Below, piece after piece: positions 5,725 through 26,584 of a stretch of DNA of 64,000 nt. A program made the translations under genes and the position numbers. Below the pieces are notes generated by a model. That model searched no databases. It was not told where the DNA came from and saw only the letters and a program-made list of their open reading frames with translations. The stretch comes from Bacteroidota bacterium (GTDB lineage Bacteria; Bacteroidota; Ignavibacteria; UBA10030; SZUA-254), in assembly GCA_035495255.1 (NCBI GenBank), contig DATJGD010000074.1, positions 318 to 64,317 of the forward strand, written 5' to 3'. Numbering within the stretch: the first letter of the stretch is position 1; each line of letters opens with the position of its first letter.

Positions 5725-7914
5725 ATGTACAAACGCATTGTATTGCTGACTATTCTTGTCGGATGCCTTGTTGTGCTTCCCACAACGATCTTCTCCGACG
5801 AAGGAATGTGGCTTCTCACACAGCTCGACAAGCTTCCCTGGGCGCACATGAAGCAACACGGCCTGGAGCTCACTCCCGAACAGATTTATAACCCGAATGG
5901 AACGAGCATCACCGATGCGATCGTCCTCTTCGGCGGCGGAACAAGCTCGTTCGTTTCAGCCGACGGGCTCGTCCTGACGAACCACCACGTCGCCTTCTCC
6001 GCGATTCAATCGGTCAGCTCCGTCCAGGAAGATTATCTGAAGGATGGATTCTATGCCGAGACCCGCGACAAAGAACTTTCTGTTCCGTCCTACACGGCCC
6101 AGATTGTCATCGGCATTAAAGATGTCTCGTCGGAAGTCCTAAGCGCAGTGAGCGACACAATGTCGGCCGAGGCCAGAGCGAAAGCGATCACGGCAAAATC
6201 GCGCGAGATCGAAAAATCTGCCAAAGGCACGAGCGACAACGAATGCCGCATTTCCGAAATGTACTTCGGCGTGAAATACATTCTTTACACGTATGAAGTT
6301 CTGCGCGACTGCCGCCTCGTCTACGCCCCTCCGACTTCCATCGGCAACTACGGCGGCGAGATCGACAACTGGTACTGGCCGCGTCACACGGGCGATTTCT
6401 CGTTCATGCGCGTCTACACGGGCCCGGACGGAAAGCCGGCGAAGTATTCGAAGCAGAACGTTCCGTATAAACCGCGGACATTCCTTCCTTTTTCAATTTC
6501 GGGACTTAATGAAGGCGACTTCGCCATGATCATGGGCTTCCCGGGACGCACATTCCGCTACCGCACCTCCATGGAAATCCAGCTCGCGAAAGACGAAACG
6601 CTTCCGCTGACGATGGATATATTTAAGACGCGGATGGATATTATCGAGGCGGGCGGAAATAATAACCGCGCGGTGCAAATCCAGTATGCCAGCAAGTGGC
6701 GAGGAATGGCAAACACCTATAAAAATTACGAAGGGGTCCTTGAAGGGATGAAGCGGTCCGATATCATGAAAGAACGGACGGCGGTGGAGGCGGATTTTAC
6801 GAAGTTTCTCGCCGCAAAGCCCGAGCTGCAGGCCAAATACGGCAACGTCATGAAACAGATCGCGGACAACTACGAGACGCTTAAAGGATTCAGCCGGAAG
6901 CAGGTGGTGATGGGCGCGCTGCTGAGCGCCACCGATCTGGTGCAGGTCGCACTCCGGTTCAACAACTTTGCCGGGGCGTTTGTGAAGGATTCAGTGTCGG
7001 GTAAGATGAAGCCGACTGACGCGAGCGTCGCCGACATGAACGATTTTCTTGCGGGAGTGTTCAAGAACTTCGACCTCACTGTCGATAAGGACCTCCTCGC
7101 CGCAATGATTACGAAGGCGGGAGATCTGCCCGCAGGCCAGCGCATTGCCCGCGTCGACAAAATCGTCGGCCAGCACACCGGCGAGGGCTTAAAGAAATCG
7201 GCCCGCGAGTTTGTGGATGATCTTTACAAACACGGCAAGATCACCACGCTCGAGGATTGCATGAACCTCATGAAGAAATCCGCCGACGACATCAAGGATA
7301 ACGACTTCGTGAAGTTCGCGGTTGACCTTACGACAGAGAATACCCCGCTTCAGGCTCAGGCGGCGAGCTTTAACGCCAAGATCGGGCTTGCGCGCGCGAG
7401 ACTTCTCGAAGCGTGGATGGCATGGAAAGGCCCCGACATTTATCCGGATGCCAACCGCACACTCCGGTTAACCTACGGAGAAGTGAAATCGTATGACGCC
7501 CGCGACGCGGTGCACTACAAATACGAGACAACGCTCGGCGGCGTGATGGAAAAAGAGACCGGCGTCGATCCGTTCATCGTTTCGCCGAAGCTGCGCGATC
7601 TGTGGGAGAAAAAGGATTTCGGACAGTACGCGGACAAGAAGGTCGGAGACGTGCCGGTGGCATTCCTGGCGAACCTCGACATTACCGGCGGCAACTCCGG
7701 CAGCCCCGTCATCAACGGCAGAGGCGAGGTCATCGGGCTTGCGTTCGACGGCAACTGGGAAGCGGTGGTCGGAGACTACCTCTACCAGGACGAGCTTAAC
7801 CGCTCGATCAACGTCGATTCGCGGTATATATTGTTCGTGTTGGATAAGTTCTCCAACGCACGCACCCTCCTGAACGAACTCAGCGTGAAGGACGGCCAGC
7901 GGTCCATGAAGTAA
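5725..7914 (+). CDS. S46 family dipeptidyl-peptidase (DPP7/DPP11-like serine peptidase)
   Basis: signal peptide then the hallmark DEGMWLL N-terminus of mature S46 peptidases; catalytic-serine motif GGNSGSPV near C-terminus; ~720 aa typical length. Confidence 0.9.
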   Translation: MYKRIVLLTILVGCLVVLPTTIFSDEGMWLLTQLDKLPWAHMKQHGLELTPEQIYNPNGTSITDAIVLFGGGTSSFVSADGLVLTNHHVAFSAIQSVSSVQEDYLKDGFYAETRDKELSVPSYTAQIVIGIKDVSSEVLSAVSDTMSAEARAKAITAKSREIEKSAKGTSDNECRISEMYFGVKYILYTYEVLRDCRLVYAPPTSIGNYGGEIDNWYWPRHTGDFSFMRVYTGPDGKPAKYSKQNVPYKPRTFLPFSISGLNEGDFAMIMGFPGRTFRYRTSMEIQLAKDETLPLTMDIFKTRMDIIEAGGNNNRAVQIQYASKWRGMANTYKNYEGVLEGMKRSDIMKERTAVEADFTKFLAAKPELQAKYGNVMKQIADNYETLKGFSRKQVVMGALLSATDLVQVALRFNNFAGAFVKDSVSGKMKPTDASVADMNDFLAGVFKNFDLTVDKDLLAAMITKAGDLPAGQRIARVDKIVGQHTGEGLKKSAREFVDDLYKHGKITTLEDCMNLMKKSADDIKDNDFVKFAVDLTTENTPLQAQAASFNAKIGLARARLLEAWMAWKGPDIYPDANRTLRLTYGEVKSYDARDAVHYKYETTLGGVMEKETGVDPFIVSPKLRDLWEKKDFGQYADKKVGDVPVAFLANLDITGGNSGSPVINGRGEVIGLAFDGNWEAVVGDYLYQDELNRSINVDSRYILFVLDKFSNARTLLNELSVKDGQRSMK

Positions 7915-8045: not shown

Positions 8046-8074
8046 TTGACATTGCAGCCCATCCTTAGTATACT
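8046..8074 (+). promoter_or_regulatory. sigma70-type promoter TTGACA-N17-TATACT
   Basis: TTGACA 8046-8051, 17-nt spacer, TATACT 8069-8074, ~70 nt upstream of ATG 8143. Confidence 0.5.
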
Positions 8075-8142: not shown

Positions 8143-11100
8143 ATGAAACACTTTACCGCGTTGTCAAATGTACCGACCCGAATCAATTTAATCGTTCTTA
8201 TCCTCTCGGCAGTCTTTCTTGCCACCGCCACTTCTGCCGATCTGCAGCAGCAATCCCGGGTTGCGTTCAAGCAGCGCGCCATGGATGCTGCCCAGCAGAT
8301 GAAAGAACTCCGGCAGGCCCTTCAGGTTTCAAAGCAGCACCCGCGAGGCATTTCAGCGGAGCGCGAAGAGGTCGGCATCCGGATCAACAGCAAGACGCAA
8401 ACCTCCTCGACGATCTTCTTCTATGATAACATGGAGAGCGGAACGAACGGCTGGACGACACTCGCGTACACCGGCTCCGATCTCTGGCACCAGACGTCGA
8501 ACAATTGGCTCTCGTCAAGCCACAGCTGGTGGCCGGGCCTCGACGGGCAGTCTAATTACGACAACGGCAGCCGGATCAACGGCGCTGTCATCTCCCCCAC
8601 GATCAATCTCACCGCCGCGGTCGCTCCCATATCCCTCCTCTTTGGAGAAAACTACGCGACCGAGCGTGGCTGGGATTATTGCATGGTCGATGTCAGCACC
8701 GACGCCGGGGCAAACTGGACACACCTGCGGGGTGGCTACGGTTCGGCTCCCGCCGGAAGCAGCGACGGATGGATCATCTCGACACTGGATCTGTCGGCCT
8801 ACGCCGGCCAAAACATTCAGATCAGATTTTATTTTGACACCGGCGACCAGAATTTCAACGAGTTCCCGGGCTGGTTCGTCGACGATGTCGTCATCTTCGA
8901 TCAGGGCGGACAGATTACCGGCAAGAAATTTTTCGATGTTAATAATAACGGCATCAAGGATGTCGGAGAGCGCGGCGTCAAGAACTGGCTTATCACAGCC
9001 GAGGGGCCGATCTCATTGACGACAAAAACGAACTACCGCGGGCGCTACTGGCTCACGCTTCCGTTGGGATCCTACACCGTCTCGGAAACGTTCCAGCCGA
9101 ACTGGACACAGACCTATCCGCTCTCGGGCACCTGGTCGCTCACGCTTTCGACCCCTGATACGCTCATCGACAGCGTGCATTTCGGCAATTACATCAACGC
9201 AAGCTTCATCAACGGCAGGAAGTTCCACGATCTCGATAAGGACGGCGCGTTCAACAACGCCGACACATTGATCCCTGAGTGGAAGATCCTTCTCTGCGAT
9301 ACCAACGGCGTCCAGCTTGACTTCGACCGCACTGATTCACTCGGCGAATACTCGCTCTACATTTTCGAGCCGGGAACGTACGTCGTGAAAGAAGTAGAAC
9401 GGAACGGATGGGTACAATCCGCGCCCGTAACAGAGACCTACAAGATTACGATCCCCGACCTTAATACCGACAGCAACGGCAATGATTTCGGAAACTACTA
9501 TTCTCCGTTGACGAACTCCATCCTCGGAATGAAGTTCAACGACCGCGACAGAAGCCATTCATTTACAGCGGGAGAGGAAGGAGTCGAAGGATTCAAGATA
9601 CAATTGTACAAGAAGGGCAACGGCAACAATTACAACCTGTACAAGACGAGGACAACCGACAGCAGCGGGATGTATCAGTTCTCCAGCCTGCCTGCCGATA
9701 CCTACCGGGTCAAGGAAATCCCCCGCCAGGGTTGGTGGCAGTCGTATCCCGACTCGTCGTGGTCGCTTACCCTCAACGACGGCGAAACGCTTGACAGCGT
9801 CGACTTCGGAAATTACGAGATCGTCACCGGATCGGTGAGCGGGCTGAAGTATAACGACCTCAACGATAACGGAAGCATGGATACGAACGAAACGGGACTC
9901 CAGGGCTGGAATATTCTTCTGACCGGGTCGACATATTTTAACGCGTCGGTGAGCCAGTCGTTGTACACCGACGGGAACGGCAACTACTCTTTCAGCGGCA
10001 TTTGGCCCGGCAGCTATGTCGTGAGCGAAGTGTGGCACTCAGGATGGAGACAGACCGAACCTGCGAATCTGGGGCCCCATTTTGTTAACCTCGATGTTGA
10101 GGAAAACAGAACCGGTGTAAATTTCGGGAATGTCCAGGACAGCACGTTCAGCGTGTCGTTCAGAACGTTCAAACCTGAGAGCCTCGCATTTGCCCTCGAC
10201 CTCAAAGGCAAGCATAAACCTGTTCTCACAAAGGCGATCAATACGCAATTCTGGGAAACTATCAGGAACACATATCCGGATTCAGCGATAAGCGCCCGGA
10301 TCAAGTTTAAGTATGCGTACCAGCCCGGTACGCTTGTCGTCCGGCCCGGAGTTACGATAACGCCGGTGAGCGATAAGAACAAGGTAATCGACCTGACATT
10401 CTCTCCTGCATTACAGCCCAACGATACCGTAACGGTTTCCGGATTTACCAAGAAGGCTGTCGTGTGGGTCGACCCCGTGTATACGTTGAACTTTAACGAC
10501 TCATCAAAGAGCGGGAATTGGTGGTCGCACACGGCATACATGAGATCCGCAATGCCGAACGCCGTCAACTTGCTCGAAAAGGTCGGGGTCGGATTGAAGG
10601 TTGGGCTTGGCGGTCCGCACAGCGTGGTTCATTTGGGCTGGAAGAACGTCATTAGTTCGTTGTTCATAAAGCCCGATCGAATTCATATCGGCGATCCGCG
10701 TTGTCTCGATTTCTACGCGGGCACAACGAAGTCTATCAAGAAGCAGCAAAAATATCTTACACCGACAAAAGGAAACAACAAACTGTTTTCCGAGCTGATC
10801 GCGCTGCAGGCGAATATTCGCGGAAGCGACCTGCTTGTTCTGCCCGGCGGATTCGGCAATCTTGTTTTTGACGATACGACCGGCGGCGGTACCCAGATAA
10901 ATGGACTGACGATACGGGAAATCGCCGCCAAAGCAGACAGCTTCATGTCGTCGTATAAAGATACCGTGCCGGCAATCCCGTGCAACATGCCCGAAGGCCT
11001 GGCAACATATACCGTGAACCAGCTGTACGAAAAGATCCGCATGATCGACAGCGTCTTCTCAGGTCCGGTCGATACGGTCAGCTTCTCGGGGAGCGGCGGA

Positions 11101-11520
11101 CTGAAATTTACGCCGGTGGCCCCCCTCTCATCGGTTCCGTTCCTGCGGTTCGATCCGCTTGCAGCGCAGCGGGCAGGATTCATTTCCTTGCCGCCGCAAA
11201 CCGGGTACGCGGTACCGGATGTCTTCGCGCTGAACCAGAATTATCCGAACCCGTTCAATCCGACGACGACGATTTCATTCACCTTAAGCCAGCCATCGCT
11301 CGTGACGGTGAGAGTCTACAATATCCTGGGCCAGGAGGTCGCGACGTTGGTCAGCCGGCAGGAAATGGAGGACGGCGATCAGGAGGTGGAGTTTAACGCG
11401 AACAATCTGCCGTCGGGCGTTTACTTCTGCCGGCTCGTCGCGGAAGGAATTCCGGACGATGACGAAGGGATCACGGCAACAACGTTTACGGCGATAAAGA
11501 AGATGTTGCTCGTAAAATAA
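8143..11520 (+). CDS. T9SS-sorted giant surface protein: MAM-like N-domain, ~7 SdrD-B/Cna-B-type repeats, conserved unknown C-region, T9SS C-terminal domain
   Basis: signal peptide; N-domain ends GWFVDDVVIF (MAM-like GxIAIDDI ending); repeats with DxNxNGxxDxxE (FFDVNNNGIKDVGE, FHDLDKDGAFNNAD, YNDLNDNGSMDTNE); C-terminal NYPNPFNPTTTISFTL..YNILGQEV..KKMLLVK = T9SS (Por) CTD. Confidence 0.85.
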   Translation: MKHFTALSNVPTRINLIVLILSAVFLATATSADLQQQSRVAFKQRAMDAAQQMKELRQALQVSKQHPRGISAEREEVGIRINSKTQTSSTIFFYDNMESGTNGWTTLAYTGSDLWHQTSNNWLSSSHSWWPGLDGQSNYDNGSRINGAVISPTINLTAAVAPISLLFGENYATERGWDYCMVDVSTDAGANWTHLRGGYGSAPAGSSDGWIISTLDLSAYAGQNIQIRFYFDTGDQNFNEFPGWFVDDVVIFDQGGQITGKKFFDVNNNGIKDVGERGVKNWLITAEGPISLTTKTNYRGRYWLTLPLGSYTVSETFQPNWTQTYPLSGTWSLTLSTPDTLIDSVHFGNYINASFINGRKFHDLDKDGAFNNADTLIPEWKILLCDTNGVQLDFDRTDSLGEYSLYIFEPGTYVVKEVERNGWVQSAPVTETYKITIPDLNTDSNGNDFGNYYSPLTNSILGMKFNDRDRSHSFTAGEEGVEGFKIQLYKKGNGNNYNLYKTRTTDSSGMYQFSSLPADTYRVKEIPRQGWWQSYPDSSWSLTLNDGETLDSVDFGNYEIVTGSVSGLKYNDLNDNGSMDTNETGLQGWNILLTGSTYFNASVSQSLYTDGNGNYSFSGIWPGSYVVSEVWHSGWRQTEPANLGPHFVNLDVEENRTGVNFGNVQDSTFSVSFRTFKPESLAFALDLKGKHKPVLTKAINTQFWETIRNTYPDSAISARIKFKYAYQPGTLVVRPGVTITPVSDKNKVIDLTFSPALQPNDTVTVSGFTKKAVVWVDPVYTLNFNDSSKSGNWWSHTAYMRSAMPNAVNLLEKVGVGLKVGLGGPHSVVHLGWKNVISSLFIKPDRIHIGDPRCLDFYAGTTKSIKKQQKYLTPTKGNNKLFSELIALQANIRGSDLLVLPGGFGNLVFDDTTGGGTQINGLTIREIAAKADSFMSSYKDTVPAIPCNMPEGLATYTVNQLYEKIRMIDSVFSGPVDTVSFSGSGGLKFTPVAPLSSVPFLRFDPLAAQRAGFISLPPQTGYAVPDVFALNQNYPNPFNPTTTISFTLSQPSLVTVRVYNILGQEVATLVSRQEMEDGDQEVEFNANNLPSGVYFCRLVAEGIPDDDEGITATTFTAIKKMLLVK

Positions 11521-11541
11521 GAACTTTACCTTGGAGATCAG

Positions 11542-13809
11542 ATGCCCGCATATTTGATCGATCGGAAGACAATACTTGCAATCGCGGGGATGATAGTTCT
11601 CATCCCTGCGATGCTGTTCGCCCAGAAGACATCGCGAACTGCGGCTCAACTGCGTTCGCTGGAGCACGAACACTCCGAAGGCACATACATCACCGTCCCC
11701 ACATCGCAGCAGAAGCTCTCGCCTGCGTTCACACTCTCCTCCTCACGGTTTTTTATGACGCAGGTAAACGTCGCCGGCGGCGCGAACATCTTGGGCGATG
11801 CCGCGAACGAACCGTCGATCGCCATCGATCCGAACGATTCGAACAGAATAGCGATCGGTTGGCGGCAGTTCAATACTGTGGCGGATAATTTCAGGCAGGC
11901 GGGCTGGGGATATTCCACCAACGGAGGACAGACCTGGACATTCCCCGGGGTTATCGAGCCCGGCATTTTTCGCTCAGATCCCATTCTTGAAGCCGATGCG
12001 AACGGAAATTTCTACTATAATAGCCTTACCACCAAGCGAAGCAATTTTTCCTGTGATGTTTACAAATCGACGAATGGCGGGGCGGCGTGGGACACGGGCC
12101 ATCAGGCATGGGGAGGGGACAAAGCATGGATGGTGATCGACCGGACGGATACAGTGGGCAAAGGAAACATTTACTCTTTCTGGACTCCCGGAGTGGGGCC
12201 GAGCATCTGCCCGACCGGTTCCTTCACACGCTCGACAGATGACGACGAAACGTATGAAGCCTGCTCGATCATTCCCGGTTCGCCGTTCTGGGGAACAATG
12301 GCGATCAAAAACAACGGGACGCTGTTCATCGGCGCTCACGGCGATACGAGCTTCATCGTCACCAAATCGACTTCTGCCCGCGACTCCGGAGCGACCGTCA
12401 CGTGGGACACTCTCGCCCCGGTGAACCTGGATGGCGACATTGTCTACGGTTCAGCGCCGAATCCGGGGGGGATTGCGGGACAGACCTGGATCGCGATCGA
12501 CAATTCTTCCGGCCCGACAAAGGGCAATATCTACCTTCTCTGTTCCGTTCAGCGGAAGTCCACTTCAGATCCCCTCGACGTCATGCTCGCGCGAAGCGTT
12601 GACGGCGGATTGACGTGGGGGCCCCCTGTCCGCATCAACGACGATACAAGTTCGACCGCGATGCAATGGTTCGGCACGCTGGCGGTCGCGCCGAACGGGC
12701 GCATCGACGTGATCTGGCTCGACACGCGCGACAATCCCGGAACCGTGATGTCTTCGTTGTATTATTCGTTTTCGAACGACGGCGGACTATCCTGGTCGAC
12801 CAACGAACGGCTGTCGGGTTCCTTCGACCCGCACGTCGGCTGGCCGCAGCAAAATAAGATGGGTGACTATTTCCACATGATCTCCGAGAACGACGGCCCG
12901 CGGTTTGCCTGGGCGGCGACGTTCAACAACGAACAGGATGTCTACTTCGGGCGCATCAATGAAAGCTCCGGAGCGGTTGGAGGCACCAGGATCATCGTCG
13001 CAGGTGGATGGAATCTTCTCTCGGTGCCCGTCACTGTGGGGAATTACGCAAAGGCCACCCTCTTCCCTACGTCGACATCAAGCGCTTTTTGGTTCGATGG
13101 GAACGCGTACGCACAGCAAGACACGCTGGCGAACGGCCTTGGCTACTGGCTCAAGTTCGCTAACCCGGAATCCGTCATCGTTAACGGAGACCCTATTGCC
13201 AGCGAAACAGTCGGCGTAAGCGCCGGGTGGAATCTTCTTGGAACGATCAGCAGCTCAACTCAGGCAGCAAACATCACATCCTCTCCTCCGGGCATCGTCA
13301 CATCACAATTTTTTGGCTACAACGGACAATATTTCAGCTCGGCGAACCTGCTTCCCGGAAGAGGATATTGGGTAAAGACAGACCAGGCGGGAAGCCTTAC
13401 GATTTCGAGCTCTTCGGCGATGCAGACCGCGGCATCTATCCGCATTGTGCAAACATCGGAGCTGCCACCGGTGCCTCCGGATAGAGGCCCGGCCTCAGGC
13501 GCCCCTTCAGTATTCCGGCTTGAACAGAATTATCCCGACCCATTCAACCCATCGACGAAAATCTCGTTTACACTCAGCCATCCTTCCGTTGTCACCATTA
13601 CGCTCTATGATATTCTCGGACGCCAGGCTGCGGTGATCATGGAGAGAAAGCTAATGAATGAAGGGACCCATGAGATCACCTTCGATGCTGGAAATCTTGC
13701 CTCCGGCATCTATTTCTACCATCTGTCCGCGAACGGACAGCCTGGTTCCGCTGATGGATATTCTGCGGAGAATTATACGGCGGTCAAAAAGATGGTCCTC
13801 TTGAGGTAG
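11542..13809 (+). CDS. T9SS-sorted BNR/sialidase-like beta-propeller protein with GWN..GYWVK module
   Basis: signal peptide; Asp-box motifs (YSTNGGQTW, YKSTNGGAAW, RSVDGGLTW, FSNDGGLSW); duplicated GWNLL..GYW(L/V)K module at 13004-13410; NYPDPFNPSTKISFTL..KKMVLLR T9SS CTD; starts 22 nt after the 8143 gene. Confidence 0.8.
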   Translation: MPAYLIDRKTILAIAGMIVLIPAMLFAQKTSRTAAQLRSLEHEHSEGTYITVPTSQQKLSPAFTLSSSRFFMTQVNVAGGANILGDAANEPSIAIDPNDSNRIAIGWRQFNTVADNFRQAGWGYSTNGGQTWTFPGVIEPGIFRSDPILEADANGNFYYNSLTTKRSNFSCDVYKSTNGGAAWDTGHQAWGGDKAWMVIDRTDTVGKGNIYSFWTPGVGPSICPTGSFTRSTDDDETYEACSIIPGSPFWGTMAIKNNGTLFIGAHGDTSFIVTKSTSARDSGATVTWDTLAPVNLDGDIVYGSAPNPGGIAGQTWIAIDNSSGPTKGNIYLLCSVQRKSTSDPLDVMLARSVDGGLTWGPPVRINDDTSSTAMQWFGTLAVAPNGRIDVIWLDTRDNPGTVMSSLYYSFSNDGGLSWSTNERLSGSFDPHVGWPQQNKMGDYFHMISENDGPRFAWAATFNNEQDVYFGRINESSGAVGGTRIIVAGGWNLLSVPVTVGNYAKATLFPTSTSSAFWFDGNAYAQQDTLANGLGYWLKFANPESVIVNGDPIASETVGVSAGWNLLGTISSSTQAANITSSPPGIVTSQFFGYNGQYFSSANLLPGRGYWVKTDQAGSLTISSSSAMQTAASIRIVQTSELPPVPPDRGPASGAPSVFRLEQNYPDPFNPSTKISFTLSHPSVVTITLYDILGRQAAVIMERKLMNEGTHEITFDAGNLASGIYFYHLSANGQPGSADGYSAENYTAVKKMVLLR

Positions 13810-13992
13810 CTGTAACCTATTGTCACGGCACCGCTTGCCCCGTGGACCCGCTCGACCCGCCGGGCACGTTGATTCCCGCCTGAAAGCTCCATACATTTAG
13901 ATGCGCCTTGCAATTCAGCCATTATCCCATCACGCGCTGAACTTGTCCCTTTCCAACCATTCACCAGAATATATTCCGTCAAGGAGGGTGTC

Positions 13993-16900
13993 ATGACGAC
14001 CTCTTGTGCTGCATTCCATAAATATGCTGAAGATCTGTTCTTGAAGATCATTTGCCTGCTTGTTTTCATCACAGCGGGATATTCAGTTTCTTCCGCAGCT
14101 GAGGCACGATTGCAGTCTCGCGGTACGGAAAATCGCGCCGCCGCCGCCGCACGTCAGCTTCGGGATTACAACAATCGCATCGCAAACGGGAAATCGGACG
14201 CATTCAGCCGGCCAAGCCAATCCTCGCGGCCGCCATTTAATAACATCGCCGCTTCATCGTCGACGATCTTCTTCTTCGACGACATGGAAAGCGGGACGAG
14301 CGGTTGGACCGTCGGAACTCATACCGACAGCGCGGTCTGGCATCAATCGACTCTTGCAGCCAACTCGCCGACACACAGCTGGTGGGCCGGCATAGAGGCT
14401 CAGGGAAATTACAACACCGGCACGCGAGTTTCAGAGCGGCTGATCTCGCCCCCCATCCCGCTCACAGGAAGCGTGGGAAGCGTATCCGTATTGTTCACGG
14501 AGAATTATGTGACCGAGCGGGGCTGGGATTTTTGCATGGTCGACGTGTCGACTGACGGCGGCTCCTCATGGGTTCATCTGCGCGGAGCTTACGGGTCTTC
14601 TCCTTCCGGCGACAGTTACGGCTGGAAGGTCTCTTCGCTTGATCTTACTCCGTACGCCGGCCAGACCGTCAATCTGAGCTTCTTCTTCGATACCGGCGAC
14701 TCGATTTTCAACGCGTTCCCGGGCTGGTTCGTCGATAATGTCGCGGTGTTCGACCAGTCAGGCATCGTGGGAGGGATGGTTTACCTCGACATGAACCAGG
14801 ACGGTGTGTTCCAGGGTGTGGAGGTCGGGCTCGCCGGACGGCCCATTCAAATAGCCGGCCCGGTAACTCTCACGGCCACGACAAACGACGACGGCACGTA
14901 CGCACTGCGGCTCCCGCTCGGCTCCTATGATATCTCCGAGATTGTCCCTTCTCCATGGATACTCACCTCGAGCCCTGCCTCGTGGAACGCGAATCTCACG
15001 GTTCCCGATCAGACGATTAATAACCTGTCGTTCGGCAATTACAGATCGGGTAGCCTTCTCAGCGGTACTGTCTTCGACGACATCAACATGGATGGCGTGA
15101 AGGATATCAGCGATCCGGCGCTCCCCGGCGGATATCTCGAGCTCAGGGACTCGCTGGATGATTTGGTGAGCGATGCGTATACCGATACGTCAGGGGCGTA
15201 CAGCTTTTTTGTCTGGAACAGCGGCACCTATTACGTCGCGCATTATCCGGAGGACGGCTGGGTTTCTACAGTCCCGGGTGGGAGCACTCCAACGTACGCC
15301 GTAGTCGTTCCCTCTACTGACACGCTTATTAACGGACTTCTCTTCGGTGAATTTTTCAATGCGTCGCCCGGCGACTCAGGCATAATTTCGGGATGGGTTT
15401 TCGACGACCTGGACCACAACGGAACGCAGGATGACCGCGAGCCTTTCCTATCGCAACGAGTGATTTCGCTCTATCTTTCCGGGGACTTTTTCAACAATAC
15501 AACCACAGATTCGGCGGGAAAATTTTCCTTTACCCATCTTGCCCCGGGAACATACACCGTAGAGCTTGACCCGCTCTACCGGTGGCAGCAGTCGACACCC
15601 GACAGCTTCTACATATTTGCCCTTGCGTCGGGCCAAACGAGGGACAGTGTCATCTTCGGTTCCTATGAGCTTCCTGCAGGTACGGTCCGGGGAACAGTGT
15701 TCAACGACCTGAACCGGAACGGGCAAAAGGACACGCTTGAACAGGGACTTTCGGGCTGGATCGTCTCCGCGCTGGGGCCGGGCAGCTTTTCTGTCGATGC
15801 GGTAACTGACTCTGCGGGAAGGTATTCGCTGAACAATGTGGTCATCGGCCCTCATACCGTCGCGCTCCACCAGCGGGACCAATGGGCCCAGTCCTCTCCG
15901 CCGGGCTCACCCTGGTCGATTTCTCTTTCGGCGCTCGAAATTAGGGACAGTATTGATTTCGGCGTCTATGCTCTCCTTCCCGGCACGATCACCGGGACTG
16001 TGTTTAACGATGCCGACAAAAATTCCGCACGCGATCCGGGAGAGGGGGGACTCGCCAACATGCAGATCCGGCTTGAGGGGGCGGCAACAGGGACGACGAG
16101 CACCAACGACAGCGGGTACTTTCAATTCACCGGGCTGTGGTCCGGGCCGTACACTGTTCGCCTTATTCCAAGCTCGAACCGCCGCCAGACATTACCCGCC
16201 ATGCTGCTTCCGCACCAGGTAAACCTGGGCGATGAAGAGCATCATGCCGGGACGGACTTCGGCGTCGCCTTCGATTCTACATTCAATATCGTCTTTCGGA
16301 CATTTCTGCCGGAGAGCCTCGCCCTGCCGCATGACAGCAAAGGGAAGACAGGCAAAGCGGAGAAGAAAAAGCCCTATGCAAGCGAGGCGACATTCGATTT
16401 GGTGACGCCTGTGGGAGGGCTCACCGGCCTGCATGTGGAGTTTGGCCAGAACCTTCTGCCGGGAAGCCTGACGATAAATTTCTTTACCTCACAAGTACCT
16501 GACGGAGCCTTGCGAAAGTGGAACTTTGCGATGCCGGGGGACGATACTCTTGGCAGCGGAGATCATGTCGTGATATTTGCCCGGGGCAACAAGGGCAAAA
16601 CCCTTCTGATCTCAAAATATTGGTGGATCAGGGGAGCGGAGAACCCGGCAATCGGAACCCAGGCAGTGCGGTCGACGAGTGGAAACGGAAGGCTCCTGCT
16701 GCTGATGCCGAACACGATGAACATGCTCGATGAGGCGTATGCCCGTTTGGGGAATTTGAGCCCTCTCACCATCGGCCTCGGCGGTGCGCACTCGGTCTTC
16801 CAGGTAAAGTCGGCAGACGTCTGGAAATCGCTTCTCGACAAGCACGGGATGCACATCGGCCCACCGAGATGTCTCGGAGTCTATGCAACCACCCTGAAAC

Positions 16901-17655
16901 CGATCTCCCGGTTTATTAAGACCCTGCCCCCGACAAAAGGGAATAATGTGATGTTTGCGGAAATGCTCGCCCTCAAGGTCAACCTGCTCGCAAGCGAACT
17001 CTGGTTAACGCCGCCCGGACTCGGATATCTGCGGTTTGACGAAGGCTCTGCGAACAGATTTAACGGATTGAACATTTACCAAATCGCCGGACAACTCGAC
17101 ACCGCGATGTCTTCGTTCGACGACATTTCCAAAACCTGCCTTTATGACAACGCGTTTTTCGACGAGGCATACCGCACGATCCGCATGATCGATTCGGCGT
17201 TTTCAGGTCCGTTCGATACGCTCTCCTACGCGAGTGTCATGAATCTGACGCCGGTGCGGAATTTGTCGGATGTCGGATTTTTACACCTCGATAGCAGCGC
17301 CGCTTCTGCGGCCGCTCACCTCCGCCTGAACGCGAAGGCCGCTCCGCTGCCGGAAGTTTTTCGCCTTGAACAAAATTACCCGAACCCGTTCAATCCCACG
17401 ACGACGATCGCGTTTACGCTGCCGCAACCCTCCCTCGTCACCCTTACCGTCTATAATATACTTGGGCAGGAAGTGGCGAGCCTCCTGAACCGGGAGGAAA
17501 TGGATGACGGCGATCAGGAAGTTGCGTTCGACGCAGGCAGCTTATCCTCGGGCGTGTATTTCTATCACCTGAAGACGGAAGTCATGACAGATGAGGATCA
17601 GAAGATCGTGGGACAAACGTTTTCGGCGGTACGGAAGATGCTGTTGGTGAAGTAA
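13993..17655 (+). CDS. T9SS-sorted giant surface protein, paralog of 8143..11520
   Basis: same architecture and colinear motifs (STIFFFDDMESGTSGWT; GWFVDNVAVF; SdrD-B repeats FDDINMDGVKDISD, FDDLDHNGTQDDRE, FNDLNRNGQKDTLE; C-region GLGGAHSV..PTKGNN; NYPNPFNPTTTIAFTL..RKMLLVK). Confidence 0.85.
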   Translation: MTTSCAAFHKYAEDLFLKIICLLVFITAGYSVSSAAEARLQSRGTENRAAAAARQLRDYNNRIANGKSDAFSRPSQSSRPPFNNIAASSSTIFFFDDMESGTSGWTVGTHTDSAVWHQSTLAANSPTHSWWAGIEAQGNYNTGTRVSERLISPPIPLTGSVGSVSVLFTENYVTERGWDFCMVDVSTDGGSSWVHLRGAYGSSPSGDSYGWKVSSLDLTPYAGQTVNLSFFFDTGDSIFNAFPGWFVDNVAVFDQSGIVGGMVYLDMNQDGVFQGVEVGLAGRPIQIAGPVTLTATTNDDGTYALRLPLGSYDISEIVPSPWILTSSPASWNANLTVPDQTINNLSFGNYRSGSLLSGTVFDDINMDGVKDISDPALPGGYLELRDSLDDLVSDAYTDTSGAYSFFVWNSGTYYVAHYPEDGWVSTVPGGSTPTYAVVVPSTDTLINGLLFGEFFNASPGDSGIISGWVFDDLDHNGTQDDREPFLSQRVISLYLSGDFFNNTTTDSAGKFSFTHLAPGTYTVELDPLYRWQQSTPDSFYIFALASGQTRDSVIFGSYELPAGTVRGTVFNDLNRNGQKDTLEQGLSGWIVSALGPGSFSVDAVTDSAGRYSLNNVVIGPHTVALHQRDQWAQSSPPGSPWSISLSALEIRDSIDFGVYALLPGTITGTVFNDADKNSARDPGEGGLANMQIRLEGAATGTTSTNDSGYFQFTGLWSGPYTVRLIPSSNRRQTLPAMLLPHQVNLGDEEHHAGTDFGVAFDSTFNIVFRTFLPESLALPHDSKGKTGKAEKKKPYASEATFDLVTPVGGLTGLHVEFGQNLLPGSLTINFFTSQVPDGALRKWNFAMPGDDTLGSGDHVVIFARGNKGKTLLISKYWWIRGAENPAIGTQAVRSTSGNGRLLLLMPNTMNMLDEAYARLGNLSPLTIGLGGAHSVFQVKSADVWKSLLDKHGMHIGPPRCLGVYATTLKPISRFIKTLPPTKGNNVMFAEMLALKVNLLASELWLTPPGLGYLRFDEGSANRFNGLNIYQIAGQLDTAMSSFDDISKTCLYDNAFFDEAYRTIRMIDSAFSGPFDTLSYASVMNLTPVRNLSDVGFLHLDSSAASAAAHLRLNAKAAPLPEVFRLEQNYPNPFNPTTTIAFTLPQPSLVTLTVYNILGQEVASLLNREEMDDGDQEVAFDAGSLSSGVYFYHLKTEVMTDEDQKIVGQTFSAVRKMLLVK

Positions 17656-17891
17656 GTTGCCCAACTATCGCTAGTACCTAATACTCGCAATATCACCCCG
17701 GCAGGAGATACGTTCCGGCTCCTGCCGGCTGTACGTTGACATTTCTAAGTGTCCCAATTGCATGGAGGATGCGGATTGGGCCTGTTCGCCTGCCTTTTTA
17801 CACTTTTTAACTCCGCCCGCTGAACCCAATTCGACACTCTTCCGTATACACTATAAATATTTCCTAACGCGGACCATTATGAGGGGCTGTC

Positions 17892-19409
17892 ATGGCTAAA
17901 TTGTGTTTTGTCGTACTGCTTGTCGCATTGCTGGCCGGTCTGAGCACCGGAACTCAAGCTCAAACGATCACGTGGACCGGAGCCGGCGGCAACAATCAAT
18001 GGTTTTTTCCCGAGAATTGGGACCAGATGAGAATTCCCAATAATTTCGACGACGTGTATACGACCGGAGGGGAAATAAACGCCCCGATGGGCGGCTTGAC
18101 AGTCTACATCCGCTCCCTGCATGTCGGGCCCGGCAGCCTGCTTCTTAACGGAGTGCCGCTTACCATTACCTCGGACCTTGTCATCGATTCGAACGCAACC
18201 TTTGGAGGAGATTTCAGCCTCCTGACAGTGGGAGGCAACATGGTTATCAACGGCCAGCTCAACGCAGCCACATTGAACGCCCCTGAGATACATTGCGGCG
18301 GAGACTTTCTCCCCCGAACACCCTCGTCCTTTATCCCAGGAATTTCGACCGTCTATTTCTCGGCGACGTTCGGATACTTCAGCGGGCAATTCCACAATCT
18401 TCAGTTCATCAATGGCGGCGAGCGGCATTCAAACGGAAACGCCTGGGTCAGCGGAGTCTGCCAGATCGACGACGATATCTATCTGAGGCCGGAGGATACC
18501 CTGTACATTCAGGATACCGCGAGCACGGCCATCTACGGAAATGGGACCGTCGGTGACGGGGCGGTCTCGCGCGCCATCAACCCGGGATCCACCGACAGCT
18601 ACCGCTTTGAGAGCATCTCTACATATGTTCAGTTCAATGGAACCGGCACCTACCCGTCCGCCATCCTCATGCGCACGCATCCGAACGAAACTGCCGCGAC
18701 GTGCTTCGATGTGTGGCATCCGCTCACGAGCACAGTGAATCCCGCGCAGAATATTGTTACGACGCAGGGAGTTCACACGCTCGGCAATTGGGCGATCGGG
18801 GTGCGTAATTCGACGTCGCCTGTGATCAACCGCTATTTTGAAATGCAGGCGAACGGCGGCAGCTCTTTCAGCTGCAAGGTTTCGTTGCGGTACGAGAATA
18901 CCGAAATACCCGGCGGAACTCATGAAGATTCTCTCGTGATCCTGCGGTCCGATGCCATCTCACCGCCAATCGCGAATGCCCCGGGCTGGAACCTTGTCTC
19001 GATACCAACATCCAGAACTTCCTGCAACTTGAAAACAGATTATTTTCCCAATGCGGGATCGCCGGCATTCGCGTTCGACGGCAACACTGGCTCGTATCAG
19101 TCGAAGGATACGCTGGTTCCGGGCGTTGGATATTGGGTCAAGTTTGCGAGTTCCGGCACGCATGCCGCGCCGGGGCTCGAACGGCTCAGCGATACAATCC
19201 AGGTCTATCCGGGCTGGAACATGATCGGAGGATTGAGCAAGCCGATCGCGACGTCGGCGATTGTAACGATCCCTGCCGTCGGTTTGATCAACAGCCCCTT
19301 CTTTTCCTATGAGGGAAGTTACACCGCAGCCGATACGCTCGAACCGGCGAAGGGGTATTGGGTAAAGATCAGTTCCCCCGGGGGATTAATGATACTCAAT
19401 GGGAACTAA
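17892..19409 (+). CDS. secreted protein with C-terminal duplicated GWN..GYWVK module
   Basis: signal peptide (LLVALLAGLSTGTQAQT); C-terminal APGWNLVSIP..GYWVKF..GWNMIGG..GYWVKISSPG paralogous to C-termini of 85..2889 and 11542..13809. Confidence 0.7.
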   Translation: MAKLCFVVLLVALLAGLSTGTQAQTITWTGAGGNNQWFFPENWDQMRIPNNFDDVYTTGGEINAPMGGLTVYIRSLHVGPGSLLLNGVPLTITSDLVIDSNATFGGDFSLLTVGGNMVINGQLNAATLNAPEIHCGGDFLPRTPSSFIPGISTVYFSATFGYFSGQFHNLQFINGGERHSNGNAWVSGVCQIDDDIYLRPEDTLYIQDTASTAIYGNGTVGDGAVSRAINPGSTDSYRFESISTYVQFNGTGTYPSAILMRTHPNETAATCFDVWHPLTSTVNPAQNIVTTQGVHTLGNWAIGVRNSTSPVINRYFEMQANGGSSFSCKVSLRYENTEIPGGTHEDSLVILRSDAISPPIANAPGWNLVSIPTSRTSCNLKTDYFPNAGSPAFAFDGNTGSYQSKDTLVPGVGYWVKFASSGTHAAPGLERLSDTIQVYPGWNMIGGLSKPIATSAIVTIPAVGLINSPFFSYEGSYTAADTLEPAKGYWVKISSPGGLMILNGN

Positions 19410-19449: not shown

Positions 19450-20586
19450 CTACCCCAACCTGCTTTTGAACCTCCACACGCTCAGCGTAAGCACGCTGAC
19501 TCCGATCACGAACAGCGCAACAGCCTGCGGCCACAGCTCTGCGAGGCCGGAACCTTTCAGGAACAATCCCCGCACAATCTCCAGAAAATATCTCAGCGGA
19601 ATAAGGTACGTGATGACTTGAATTATCTTCGGCATGTTCGAAATCGGAAATGTAAAGCCCGAGAGATAGATGAAGGGCATGAAGAAGAAGAACTGAGCGA
19701 TGAGCATCGCCTGCTGCTGGGTTTTTGCGATCGTCGAAATGAACAGGCCCAATCCCAGCGTCGTCAGGATAAACAGCCCGCTGAGAAACCAGAGCGTCAG
19801 CAAATGGCCCCGCAATGGGACTTCGAACCAATAATGCGCGACGCCGAGCACCACCATGACGTCGATGAACCCGATAATGACAAATGGGATAAGCTTCCCG
19901 ATGATGAGTTCGTACGGTTTTATCGGTGTGACAAGAAGCTGCTCGAGCGTTCCCACCTCTTTTTCCCGCACAATACCGAGCGACGTCATCGTCATCGTGA
20001 TGATCATGAGCACGAACGCGACGACCCCGGGCACCATATAGTCCGTACTGGTGAGATCGGGGTTGAACCAGACGCGCGGCTCGGGAAGCACTCTTCCGCC
20101 GGGGGGCGGCCGTTTCATCAGCGAGTTTTCGATCACAACTGTTCTTGCGTACTGTCCGACGATCTGGTTGGCATACCCCAGGAGGATATTTGCCATGTTT
20201 CCGTCGCTTCCGTCCATGATCATTTGCACCTGGGCGGTGCGGCGGGCAGCGATGTCATTCCCGAAATTTACCGGAATTATCAGAGCGACAGCGGCCTTGC
20301 TCTTCTCGATGTATTCATTGACGTCGTTCGGCCCCTTGACCTGGTATTTTAAATCGAAATATTCAGAGTTCGTAAACTGCTCGATGAACTCCCTGCTCGT
20401 CGCTGTGCGGTCCATGTCGCAGACCACCATCGTGCCGTGCCTGATGTCGGTCGTAGCGGCATAGCCCAGAAGAAAGACCTGCATGACCGGCGCCACGAAC
20501 GACGTGATCATCATGCGTCGGTCCTGCCGGATCTGGTAGAACTCCTTCTTGACGATTTCGAGTATGATTTGAATGCTCTTTTTCAT
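19450..20586 (-). CDS. ABC-2 type transporter permease (YbhS/YbhR-like)
   Basis: N-terminal cytoplasmic segment, large periplasmic loop, six C-terminal TM helices; typical ABC-2 family layout. Confidence 0.85.
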   Translation of the reverse strand: MKKSIQIILEIVKKEFYQIRQDRRMMITSFVAPVMQVFLLGYAATTDIRHGTMVVCDMDRTATSREFIEQFTNSEYFDLKYQVKGPNDVNEYIEKSKAAVALIIPVNFGNDIAARRTAQVQMIMDGSDGNMANILLGYANQIVGQYARTVVIENSLMKRPPPGGRVLPEPRVWFNPDLTSTDYMVPGVVAFVLMIITMTMTSLGIVREKEVGTLEQLLVTPIKPYELIIGKLIPFVIIGFIDVMVVLGVAHYWFEVPLRGHLLTLWFLSGLFILTTLGLGLFISTIAKTQQQAMLIAQFFFFMPFIYLSGFTFPISNMPKIIQVITYLIPLRYFLEIVRGLFLKGSGLAELWPQAVALFVIGVSVLTLSVWRFKSRLG

Positions 20587-20649
20587 ACAGTATCTAGGAA
20601 TACGGCATAACCATTTGATGCGGTTGTACGCTCAAAACTTATCATCGAT

Positions 20650-20958
20650 TCAGAACAGGGACAAATAGTCTCTTGCGCCATGGAGTATCCGATGGACATA
20701 CATCGTCTGTCCCTCTATGACATAAAAGATGAGGTAGTTTTCTACAACGAGATATCGATAGTGAAGGCGAACAAGGTCCTCCTCCTCCGGCACTCGACCC
20801 GAATGAGGATTCTCGGCGAGCAGATCGAGATCGTTCTCAATTTTTGTGGCAAGTGCTTCTGCGGCTGATGGTCGATCGGCTGAGATATAGCTGATGATTT
20901 CGGCGAGATCATCCTCAGCAATCCGAAGCAGTTTGATGTTATATTTAGACCGACTCAC
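20650..20958 (-). CDS. type II toxin, ParE/RelE superfamily
   Basis: 102 aa; LLRIAEDDLAEIISYI..HSGRV..YRYLVVENYLIFYVIEGQTMYVHRILHGARD pattern typical of ParE plasmid-stabilisation toxins. Confidence 0.8.
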   Translation of the reverse strand: MSRSKYNIKLLRIAEDDLAEIISYISADRPSAAEALATKIENDLDLLAENPHSGRVPEEEDLVRLHYRYLVVENYLIFYVIEGQTMYVHRILHGARDYLSLF

Positions 20959-21217
20959 GAATTCGCTGTCGAATATCCTTCATAACAGCAGACAGGCTCC
21001 GACCTTTATCACCGTTTGCCCGTTGCGCCTGGGCAACAGCGAGCTTGCTGAAGAGTTCAAGCTTGAGCTGTAATTTACTGTACTGAGCCATGGACATCAC
21101 GACCATGTCTCCTTCACCATTTTTCGTGATGAAAATGGGCTCGCCGGATTTGTGAGCAAGCTCTGAAATTCGATTGGCCTTGTTTCGCAGATCAGAGATC
21201 GGTTTTATTATTGGCAT
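20945..21217 (-). CDS. type II antitoxin, Phd/YefM family
   Basis: 90 aa; MPIIKPISDLRNKANRISELAHKSGEPIFITKNGEGDMVVMSMAQYSKL; 14-nt overlap with downstream toxin gene. Confidence 0.75.
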   Translation of the reverse strand: MPIIKPISDLRNKANRISELAHKSGEPIFITKNGEGDMVVMSMAQYSKLQLKLELFSKLAVAQAQRANGDKGRSLSAVMKDIRQRIRESV

Positions 21218-21283
21218 GTTGGCTCCAAATTGTATATATCAATATAATATCATTTACATGAGAAAGTCAAAATCACGGGGCCT

Positions 21284-22414
21284 CTAGAGGCTTCTCTTCT
21301 GCATTCTCATCGAACTGATCCCCAGCGTCACAAGCGCGAATATCCCCATATAGACGAACTGATCCCATAACTCAAGAACACCGACCCCCTTGAGCATAAT
21401 TCCTCTCACGATGATGAGAAAAAACTTGTTCACCGCGATGTTGGAGAGAATCTGGAGAGCAATGGGCATGTTGCTGATCGGAAAAATAAATCCCGAGAGC
21501 ATAAACGACGGCAGGAGCGAGCTGAAGATCGACAGCATGAACGCGACCTGCTGCGAGTTCGTGACCGTCGAGATCAACAGGCCCTGGCCGAGCGCCCCGA
21601 GGAGCAGGACGAACACCGCGCCATAGAGCAGGAGGAGACTCCCGCGGATCTGCACATCGAAGAGCATATAGCCGAGGAGAAGAATGACCGTCGCGGTTCC
21701 AAGCCCGATGATCATGTAGGGAATCGTCTTTCCGAGGATTACCTGGTACGGGCGCAGCGGCGACACCATGATCTGCTCCATCGTGCCTCTCTCCTTTTCG
21801 CGAACGACCGTCAGGGAGGTCGATACCACCGCCGTGAGCATGAGGATAGAACCGATCAGGCCGGGCACAAGAAACTTCGACGAGATAAGATCGGGATTAT
21901 ACCAGACGCGCGGCCGGAAATCGATGGGGACATACTGCTGTATCCCCTTTCGTTCGAGCATCTGCGTCAGAAGTTTTCCGGAATAGCTCGACGTCAGGCC
22001 GGCGGCATATCCCAGGGCCTGGGCCGCTTTCGTATTGTCGGATCCGTCGATGAGGATCTGCACATGCGCGTCTCTCCCTGCCAGCACGTCCTCCGCGAAT
22101 TTCGTGGGAATGACGATGGCGACAACGGCTTTGCTATGCGCGAAGAGTTCTTCGGCCTCGTCATACGAATAAATCGTATAGCGATGGTCGAAATATTCGG
22201 TCTGCTTGAACGTCTTGAGGAAGTCGCGGCTTTGCGCCGTGTTGCTTTCGTCGAGGACGGCCATCGGAATGTGCCGGACGTCGAAGTTCAGGGCGTAGCC
22301 GACAAGGATGATGAGAAACGCGGGAAGAAAGAGCAGCATGCCGAGCGATGTGGGATCGCGGCGCACCTGCCGGAATTCTTTCACGATCACCGGACGTAAT
22401 GCCTTGAAGATCAT
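21284..22414 (-). CDS. ABC-2 type transporter permease
   Basis: paralog of 19450..20586; true start MIFKALRPV at 22414 forming an ATGA overlap with the upstream ATPase stop (the longer ORF-track 5' extension to 22612 is Arg/Gly-rich and spurious). Confidence 0.85.
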   Translation of the reverse strand: MIFKALRPVIVKEFRQVRRDPTSLGMLLFLPAFLIILVGYALNFDVRHIPMAVLDESNTAQSRDFLKTFKQTEYFDHRYTIYSYDEAEELFAHSKAVVAIVIPTKFAEDVLAGRDAHVQILIDGSDNTKAAQALGYAAGLTSSYSGKLLTQMLERKGIQQYVPIDFRPRVWYNPDLISSKFLVPGLIGSILMLTAVVSTSLTVVREKERGTMEQIMVSPLRPYQVILGKTIPYMIIGLGTATVILLLGYMLFDVQIRGSLLLLYGAVFVLLLGALGQGLLISTVTNSQQVAFMLSIFSSLLPSFMLSGFIFPISNMPIALQILSNIAVNKFFLIIVRGIMLKGVGVLELWDQFVYMGIFALVTLGISSMRMQKRSL

Positions 22415-24275: not shown

Positions 24276-24302
24276 ACGCTCATCACGAAGCTGTAACCAG
24301 GG

Positions 24303-25217: not shown

Positions 25218-25221
25218 GATA

Positions 25222-26439: not shown

Positions 26440-26584
26440 ACTAAGGCTGTTGGTTGTGCGTATAATTGCATGAATATACGCAGGATGGAAGGAAGAAACA
26501 AAAAAGCCCGGCGTGTCAACACCCATTGTGACCTGCGCAACATTCTCCGTTGCACGTCGCAACAAACCGACGTATTTTCGGGAG

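Follow-up and report, generated by a model that had tools for sequence, protein, structure and literature searches.

Whether a bacterial locus has grown by copying a functional gene pair, or by gathering unrelated genes around one old one, is the question raised by positions 8143 to 19409 of the DNA analysed here, a stretch of 64,000 nucleotides referred to as the window. A preliminary description of this region proposed a segmentally duplicated two-gene module, in which a giant T9SS cargo protein is followed each time by a second protein ending in a GWN..GYWVK module, and in which the locus is expanding by duplication. The four open reading frames are confirmed at the coordinates given for them, all on the + strand: A1 (8143..11520; 1125 aa) and A2 (11542..13809; 755 aa), followed by B1 (13993..17655; 1220 aa) and B2 (17892..19409; 505 aa). 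Upstream of A1 lies a gene for a DPP7-like S46 dipeptidyl-peptidase (5725..7914, + strand), which matches Pfam Peptidase_S46 with E=3e-224 and the NCBIfam Dpp7 model with 556 bits, under the cutoff of 1200. Downstream of B2 lies a convergent conserved cluster (19450..26565, - strand) encoding two ABC-2 permeases, two ABC ATPases, an HlyD-family protein and an M24 peptidase, as assigned by Pfam.

The two giants are built on the same plan. A1 possesses a signal peptide, a MAM-like or choice-of-anchor-J-like domain (~8398-8907), four SdrD_B repeats (~8908-10122), an unannotated domain of ~345 aa termed C-dom (~10138-11178) and a T9SS type A CTD (~11224-11517). B1 contains a MAM-like domain (~14248-14757), five SdrD_B stretches, one more than A1, a C-dom (~16273-17316) and a CTD (~17359-17652). 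The N-terminal domain of ~170 aa matches PF20773 in A1 and B1 with 41 and 34 bits (cutoff 26.9), while NF038128 (choice-of-anchor J) is matched over its full model length with 22.3 bits in A1 and 26.8 bits in B1, under its cutoff of 30. The SdrD_B scores of the giants, 113 and 173 bits, exceed the cutoff of 29.7. Hydrophobic N-termini are visible in A1, A2, and B1, and these three proteins combine a signal peptide with a CTD above the curated cutoffs of Por_Secre_tail and TIGR04183 (27 and 23 bits; A1 43.3/38.6, A2 31.5/31.7, B1 38.9/37.3), which makes them T9SS type A cargo. B2 and a further protein of the window, U1, have no CTD and fall outside this class. All motifs by which the giants had been recognized are found in both, including IFF(Y/F)D(N/D)MESGT(N/S)GWT, GWFVD(D/N)V(V/A)(I/V)F, GLGG(P/A)HSV, PTKGNN, and the NYPNPFNPTT type A CTD. 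The two proteins are alignable end to end, with 35-39% identity at E of about 1e-137 in BLASTP and 40.9% identity over the full alignment, and their description as colinear paralogs was thus correct.

The second genes do not share such a relationship. A2 encodes a signal peptide, a weak BNR/sialidase-like propeller, a double beta module (~12991-13413) and a CTD (~13513-13806). B2 encodes a signal peptide, an N-terminal part of ~355 aa and a double beta module (~18975-19397) at the very C-terminus. The statement that the second genes end in the module therefore holds for B2, which lacks a CTD, but not for A2, since a linker and the T9SS CTD follow its module. A third copy of the module (~2467-2886) is located C-terminally in U1 (85..2889, + strand; 934 aa), which also carries a BNR/sortilin-type propeller and fn3 but has neither a CTD nor an adjoining giant. 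Similarity between A2 and B2 is confined to this module of ~140 aa, at 36% identity, so that the proteins are homologous over only about 140 of their 755 and 505 aa, which is at odds with a segmentally duplicated unit. The module of U1 is 46% identical to that of A2 and 48% identical to that of B2, both above the A2-B2 value, and the A2 and B2 modules are 44-49% identical to modules of other genomes. The N-terminal parts are unrelated. That of A2 weakly resembles BNR_2 (24-26 bits, under the cutoff of 31.4) and sialidases of the PDB (E=0.004-0.04 over about 80 aa), whereas that of B2 is a region without a detectable family, with nothing usable in Pfam (E up to 10), NCBIfam, or PDB sequences. 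Among the 39 loci examined, no homolog of either N-terminal part was found, nor did any related giant have a homolog of the A2 N-terminal part within 10 kb.

The DNA itself agrees with this picture. A dot-plot of 8143-13809 against 13993-19409 yielded no more than four short patches, at 67-84% identity, each of them in the MAM-like domain of the giants or in sequence that codes for a CTD, with no match between A2 and B2 and none in intergenic DNA. The two pairs had also been said to repeat the same logic, yet their operon layout differs. A1 and A2 are separated by 21 nt, while the 236 nt between B1 and B2 contain a perfect 10-bp hairpin 3′ of the B1 stop (CCGGCAGGAG...CTCCTGCCGG; 17698..17729, + strand), followed by terminator-like sites at 17771-17792. 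The hairpin, a predicted terminator, is also present in the centroid fold with a fold z-score that is not significant, and no intergenic fold was significant against shuffles. Upstream of A1, a putative sigma-70-like promoter (TTGACA-17-TATACT, 8046..8074, + strand) matches the consensus at 11/12 positions. Since the second genes share only a common end-piece, the region resembles an ordinary patch of variable content, made up of genes for secreted proteins, rather than a duplicated unit.

MAM-type giants occur exactly once in each of 22 MAGs, and the window is alone among 23 genomes in encoding two. In the closest relatives, the S46 peptidase gene is followed by a single giant and then by a convergent ABC-2 transporter operon. 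At 11 distinct related loci, the S46 gene immediately precedes the giant, and tblastx synteny places the ABC-2 cluster directly after the giant's stop in L002, L004, and L023 and about 4.5 kb after the giant in L015 and L020. Given this layout with one giant, the segment 11542..19409 on the + strand, comprising A2, B1, and B2, appears to be a lineage-specific addition of 7.9 kb. Its GC, GC3, and codon usage resemble those of the host, leaving recent horizontal transfer of A2-B1-B2 unsupported, though the segment may have been acquired through an old or within-lineage transfer. The pairing of a giant with a module gene, which related genomes were expected to repeat, is found at only one of 18 informative MAM-type loci (L022), whereas the gene downstream of the giant is convergent at 14 of the 18.

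The position of B1 among these giants bears on how the addition arose. In a neighbour-joining tree of the C-dom (345 columns), a method that could place a fast-evolving B1 wrongly through long-branch attraction, B1 falls outside the whole clade of 22 A1 orthologs in 78 of 100 bootstraps, and none of the 100 unites it with A1. A1 is sister to the giant of L002, its ortholog, with 69.5% identity and the same synteny. B1 is nearly equidistant from all giants (40-43%), being 42-43% identical to those of L008, L004, L002, and L003 compared with 40.9% to A1, and at 17 positions that are derived in A1 and the L002 giant, B1 shares the derived state at three and the family consensus at seven. With this placement outside the orthologs, and with no replicate uniting it with A1, B1 does not behave as a recent local duplicate, and as part of the explanation favoured below it is probably a paralog of A1 that is old or has diverged strongly. 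The claim of expansion by duplication is thus sustained only insofar as the locus exceeds that of relatives in size; recent duplication is not, as B1 is not the sister of A1. Database searches recovered no close homolog of B1, with one distant locus from a metagenome scan, five matches from a protein search with its C-dom (the best 52% identical over half the length) and no record from an exact-sequence look-up. The gene order B1-B2-ABC-2 recurs in a second assembly.

Taken together as a single explanation, the region is probably a variable patch, in which genes for secreted proteins adjoin a single conserved gene, and not a duplicated two-gene module. A1 would be the conserved member, corresponding to the single giant between the S46 gene and the convergent ABC-2 operon in Ignavibacteria-type relatives. 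The 7.9 kb with A2, B1, and B2 would have been added after A1 in this lineage, with A2 and B2 being unrelated proteins that each carry a mobile module of ~140 aa known on hundreds of secreted proteins. It could be proposed instead that B1 is a recent, very fast-evolving tandem duplicate of A1, with its basal tree position a long-branch artefact and A2 inserted later. The giants share a strand and are separated by 2.5 kb, no other genome of the 23 has two, the codon usage of B1 is host-typical, and the tree was built by neighbour-joining only, all of which would suit such an origin. This is nevertheless unlikely in view of the lower identity of B1 to A1 than to four other giants, its preference for the family consensus at the derived positions, and a DNA similarity of only 67-70% in two domain-coding patches. 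A further alternative holds that an ancestral pair of giant and partner was duplicated as a unit, after which the second genes changed, through divergence or the replacement of their N-terminal parts, and retained only the module. Consistent with this, order and strand are equal in both pairs, both second genes carry the module, and domain shuffling is frequent in these families, as illustrated by proteins of L030 and L041 that join a MAM-like domain to the module. However, A2 and B2 are dissimilar outside the module, as is the intergenic DNA, and a CTD is present in A2 and absent from B2. In addition, the giant stands alone in the closest relatives, and the copies are not each other's closest relatives as a duplication would have it, with A1 and B1 never grouping and the two modules closer to U1 and to foreign modules. 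Duplication of the pair is largely refuted by these observations and must be considered highly improbable.

A different form of association, partnership without duplication, would have C-dom proteins dock or carry neighbouring module proteins at the cell surface, so that their adjacency is selected. Outside the window, C-dom proteins of other architectures directly adjoin module proteins in seven loci (L022, L024, L028, L033, L036, L037, and L038), amounting to 8 of 42 C-dom genes in five MAGs, often with gaps of 4-75 nt. The dot-plot speaks against duplication and the orthologs against the pairing, but these seven loci lend residual support to a link of some kind, so that the preliminary description is not refuted in full. 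The adjacency was counted against the variable-patch explanation, as were the identical order and strand of both pairs in the window and the failure of C-dom and module to occur in a single polypeptide. Partnership is favoured by the two direct adjacencies in the window together with the seven loci, some with gaps of 4-28 nt, by the mutual exclusion of C-dom and module within one polypeptide (0 of 147 C-dom proteins), and by CTD-less module proteins lying beside C-dom proteins, namely B2 and those at 8455-11994 of L028 and 6410-8308 of L037. Conversely, such a neighbour is found for only one of the 18 MAM-type giants, and in eight module-centred loci none of the 11 module genes has a C-dom gene in its flanks, nor does U1. 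Among the secreted neighbours of C-dom genes, 11 of 27 carry the module (41%), compared with 3 of 14 (21%) in the module-centred loci; the two frequencies, small samples on which the chance expectation is based, are not clearly different. As many secreted-protein genes in these loci carry the module, the adjacency may stem from chance clustering, and selection for partnership is unlikely. A docking pair of C-dom and module, restricted to Ignavibacteria-type bacteria, is very doubtful. If it were real, C-dom proteins anchored by their CTD would retain module proteins such as B2 or assist in their export, in a cohesin-dockerin-like surface assembly built on T9SS, the module being found on hundreds of enzymes and propellers of which many have no CTD. 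The variable-patch explanation makes the finding a mostly ordinary one, namely paralogous T9SS surface proteins in a variable patch, where a shared accessory domain was mistaken for the duplication of a pair.

The two domains themselves are a useful outcome of the analysis. The module has 253 database matches on many protein types, with or without a CTD, where it accompanies GH53, fn3, SdrD_B, Big_3_5, BACON, and BNR domains and also occurs in polysaccharide-lyase and S8-peptidase contexts. Its AF2 model reaches a pLDDT of 95.8, and a Foldseek comparison with the PDB gave no match below E=0.1 (best E=0.16, TM at most 0.32), with only a weak likeness to translation-factor beta-barrels. The module is most likely a C-terminal accessory domain for binding or anchoring. 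The C-dom forms 758 clusters at 50% identity and lies just before the type A CTD in every match checked. Conserved in it are His165, His169, His187, Cys193, and Cys286, candidates for a metal site or a disulfide. Its AF2 model, built with 12 sequences, had a pLDDT of 59 and was rejected as uninformative, as were its Foldseek matches, limited to generic Ig-like sandwiches and a T9SS CTD. For both domains, nothing usable was found in Pfam (E up to 10), NCBIfam, or PDB sequences, and the literature on Ignavibacteria T9SS cargo and choice-of-anchor domains held nothing on either. These are therefore two sizeable families without a Pfam, NCBIfam, or PDB counterpart. Defining them would allow the secretomes of Ignavibacteria and relatives to be annotated better, and would reveal by what means proteins that have a signal peptide but lack a CTD arrive at the surface or are retained there.

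For the giants, the families and order of their domains suggest a route to the cell surface. They would be exported by Sec and then by T9SS through the type A CTD and attached at the cell surface. The C-dom, given its place just before the CTD in the matches checked, would lie nearest the outer membrane, also in the docking proposal. The SdrD_B repeats would form a rigid stalk and the N-terminal MAM-like jelly-roll a distal binding head. Because of this predicted arrangement, each giant is a putative stalked adhesin or substrate-capture protein. The neighbouring S46 and M24 peptidases point to a possible part in capturing peptides or proteins.

Several known systems share parts of this design. 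For the docking proposal, cohesin and dockerin offer an analogy only, in that a small C-terminal module occurs on many enzymes and propellers, sometimes beside large anchored proteins. The module has no sequence or fold relation to that system (Foldseek best E=0.16 against the PDB), and the putative receptor, the C-dom, is present once per protein instead of in arrays. A1, A2, and B1 resemble T9SS type A cargo of Bacteroidota (Por_Secre_tail, TIGR04183/PF18962) in their CTD. The giants differ from T9SS cargo families in that no curated family covers the ~345 aa that precede the CTD, and B2 and U1 in having no CTD. With NF052323, the T9SS-dependent M6-like inactivated metalloprotease, the giants share the CTD and the InhA-like MAM domain of M6-type proteins, but they have no M6 peptidase domain and match the model in the CTD only (26-32 bits against a cutoff of 600). 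Their N-terminal domain matches InhA-like MAM (PF20773) above its cutoff and spans the choice-of-anchor J model (NF038128) in full, with scores just under the cutoff of the latter. In comparison with the MSCRAMM proteins SdrD and SdrC of Staphylococcus aureus, the giants lack the A-domain, SD repeats, and LPXTG anchor, and match the SdrD model NF012181 by the B-repeats alone (34.5 and 74.2 bits, where the cutoff is 2500). Although they are anchored by a T9SS CTD in a cell envelope of the opposite kind, they resemble these adhesins in their four to five SdrD_B repeats, plausibly a rigid stalk for a distal binding domain.

The four ORFs named in the preliminary description lie on the + strand at 8143-11520 (A1, 1125 aa), 11542-13809 (A2, 755 aa), 13993-17655 (B1, 1220 aa), and 17892-19409 (B2, 505 aa), and each has a hydrophobic N-terminus resembling a signal peptide. 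A1 and B1, the two giants, both contain the motifs quoted there and have an identical architecture by Pfam and NCBIfam. An InhA-like MAM / choice-of-anchor-J-like domain (~aa 86-255) is followed by SdrD_B repeats (four in A1, five in B1), a region of ~345 aa that matches no Pfam or NCBIfam family in either protein (here termed C-dom), and a C-terminal T9SS type A CTD that scores above the Por_Secre_tail / TIGR04183 cutoffs. With one architecture and an end-to-end alignment at 35-39% identity, the giants are colinear paralogs, as had been described.

The genes that follow the giants were said to end in a shared module and to complete a duplicated two-gene unit. B2 does end in this ~140-aa double beta module, preceded by an N-terminal part of ~355 aa without a match in Pfam, NCBIfam, or PDB, and has no CTD, whereas A2 starts with a weak BNR/sialidase-like propeller, and its module is followed by a linker and then by a type A CTD. 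BLASTP similarity between A2 and B2 is confined to the module (36% identity). A DNA dot-plot of the two pair segments gave four short patches (67-84% identity), all within the MAM-like domain or CTD-coding sequence of the giants, and none between A2 and B2 or in the spacers. A third copy of the module is located at the very C-terminus of U1 (85-2889, + strand), which has a signal peptide, a BNR/sortilin-type propeller with a partial match to the F510_1955 glycosylhydrolase family (164 bits; cutoff 175), and an fn3 domain, and is without a T9SS CTD or a giant nearby. The U1 module is 46% identical to that of A2 and 48% to that of B2, so that each is nearer to U1 than to the other. Thus, the ORFs, motifs, and colinear giants of the preliminary description stand, but A2 and B2 are alike in the module only, and the duplicated two-gene unit is largely unsupported.

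A profile built from the three module copies matched 253 proteins in a word-indexed database, with GH53, fn3, SdrD_B, Big_3_5, BACON, Ig_Rha78A_N, and FlgD_ig as partner domains. Among the best 120 of these matches, a CTD follows the module in 17, and most of the others end 0-30 aa past it. In genomic look-ups, the module was carried by a chondroitinase-B/NosD-type lyase, by small proteins, and by module+CTD genes arranged in tandem, and it also occurred next to an S8 peptidase ORF. An AlphaFold2 model (122 sequences; pLDDT 95.8, pTM 0.90) is all-beta with two ~70-aa repeats, and Foldseek found no PDB match below E=0.16 (TM at most 0.32). The module is a promiscuous domain; therefore, its presence in A2 and B2 is no evidence for their descent from one gene. 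Two proteins from comparison loci (L030, 9223-12435; L041, 9209-13462) join a MAM-like domain and the module in a single polypeptide. It thus appears that the module and the C-dom+CTD cassette can replace one another as the C-terminal end of proteins with similar N-terminal parts.

C-dom (10138-11178 in A1, 16273-17316 in B1) is likewise a family without a counterpart in Pfam, NCBIfam, or PDB. An exhaustive profile search returned 758 clusters (50% identity), of which 306 had E-values below 1e-30, and among the matches listed C-dom always lies ~110 aa from the C-terminus. All 147 retrieved representatives (P0136-P0282) carry a type A CTD after C-dom; the MAM-like domain is present in 21 and the module in none. 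Their N-terminal parts vary from SdrD_B only to FG-GAP + Flg_new_2, TIG + SdrD_B, sortilin + Ig-like domains, or almost nothing. The conserved core (PMPNAIN..GLGGPHSVVH..RCL..PTKxNN..GFGNLxFD) includes an invariant Cys193 and near-invariant Cys286, His165, His169, and His187, which might form a disulfide and a metal site. The structure model was poor (pLDDT 59) and gave no informative match in a fold search.

In GTDB species genomes, a pattern scan with a C-dom alignment yielded 39 loci. Every one belongs to an Ignavibacteria-type MAG, under the label Ignavibacteria, 'Chlorobiaceae', or Bacteroidota, and 22 MAGs each have exactly one MAM-type giant. The giant of MAG CAVQPS01 (contig_37303; L001/L011, 8109-11500) is broken into three ORFs, probably through frameshift errors of long-read assembly rather than as a real pseudogene. 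In 11 distinct loci, the gene immediately 5' of the giant encodes an S46 peptidase. The pairing proposed for the window is rare in these relatives, as the downstream gene is convergent in 14 of 18 informative loci, a + strand non-module gene in three, and a module+CTD gene only in L022 (gap of 4 nt); homologs of the A2 or B2 N-terminal parts occur in none of the 39. In L002 (giant 69.5% identical to A1), L004, and L023, tblastx places orthologs of window 19450-26565, a cluster of two ABC-2 permeases, two ABC ATPases, an HlyD-family protein, and an M24 peptidase, directly after the giant's stop. It is thus parsimonious to read 11542-19409 (A2, B1, and B2; 7.9 kb) as an addition in the lineage of the window. 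The B1-B2-ABC-2 order recurs in a second assembly. Since the two permease genes abut in L002, L004, and L023, the RelE/ParE-like toxin (102 aa, 20650-20958, - strand) and Phd/YefM antitoxin (90 aa, 20945-21217, - strand) genes between them look like a small insertion within a conserved transporter operon. Further along, a family B DNA polymerase gene (31683-34004, +) is surrounded by what are otherwise housekeeping genes, among them those for GroEL, HisRS, adenylosuccinate lyase, and an HtrA-type protease.

A neighbor-joining tree of C-dom (345 columns, 100 bootstraps) places A1 as sister to L002 within the ortholog clade. B1 falls outside this clade altogether in 78 of the 100 replicates and never groups with A1. 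In the family alignment, full-length B1 is 40.9% identical to A1 and 42-43% to L008, L004, L002, and L003. Of 17 positions derived in A1 and L002, B1 has the derived state at three and the family consensus at seven. Judged by its tree position, these identities, and the derived-state counts, B1 is not a recent local duplicate of A1. It may be an old paralog lost elsewhere, or a relocated or imported copy; no close B1 homolog is present in the collections searched, and the host-typical GC, GC3, and codon usage of 11542-19409 give no indication of recent transfer from a donor of foreign composition. B1 may also be a fast-evolving duplicate that long-branch attraction has misplaced in the tree.

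The predicted operon logic of the two pairs is also unlike. A sigma-70-like promoter match (TTGACA-17-TATACT, 11/12) at 8046-8074 (+), 69 nt 5' of the A1 start, suggests transcription of A1 independently of the S46 gene, and the 21-nt gap between A1 and A2 makes their co-transcription likely. Between B1 and B2 there are 236 nt, within which a perfect 10-bp hairpin lies at 17698-17729 and terminator-like sites at 17771-17792.

In more distant loci, C-dom genes directly adjoin module genes (L024, L028 twice, L033, L036, L037, and L038), amounting with L022 to 8 of 42 C-dom genes in five MAGs, with the smallest gaps at 4-28 nt. A selected partnership would account for such neighbors, but it is improbable given that the secreted-protein genes of these loci form tandem arrays and commonly encode the module. 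The module occurs on 11 of 27 recognizable secreted neighbors near C-dom genes (3 of 14 in module-chosen loci), and in eight module-centered loci the flanks of all 11 module genes are free of C-dom genes. If the per-neighbor module frequency is 0.2-0.4, two module neighbors out of two, as in the window, would arise by chance with a probability of roughly 0.04-0.16. A co-functioning two-gene module is largely unsupported.

From the established properties of the domain families, it is proposed that the giants undergo Sec and then T9SS export, after which the type A CTD would be removed and the protein attached at the cell surface. C-dom would then lie nearest the membrane, the SdrD_B repeats would form a stalk, and the MAM-like jelly-roll would be the distal binding head. 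The frequent S46 neighbor and the nearby M24 peptidase weakly suggest the capture of proteinaceous substrates. The module most likely gives diverse secreted proteins a C-terminal means of binding or anchoring. The region adds modest value in exposing two unannotated domain families, the module and C-dom; the region itself, a variable patch that encodes paralogous T9SS cargo proteins, is a known kind of locus.
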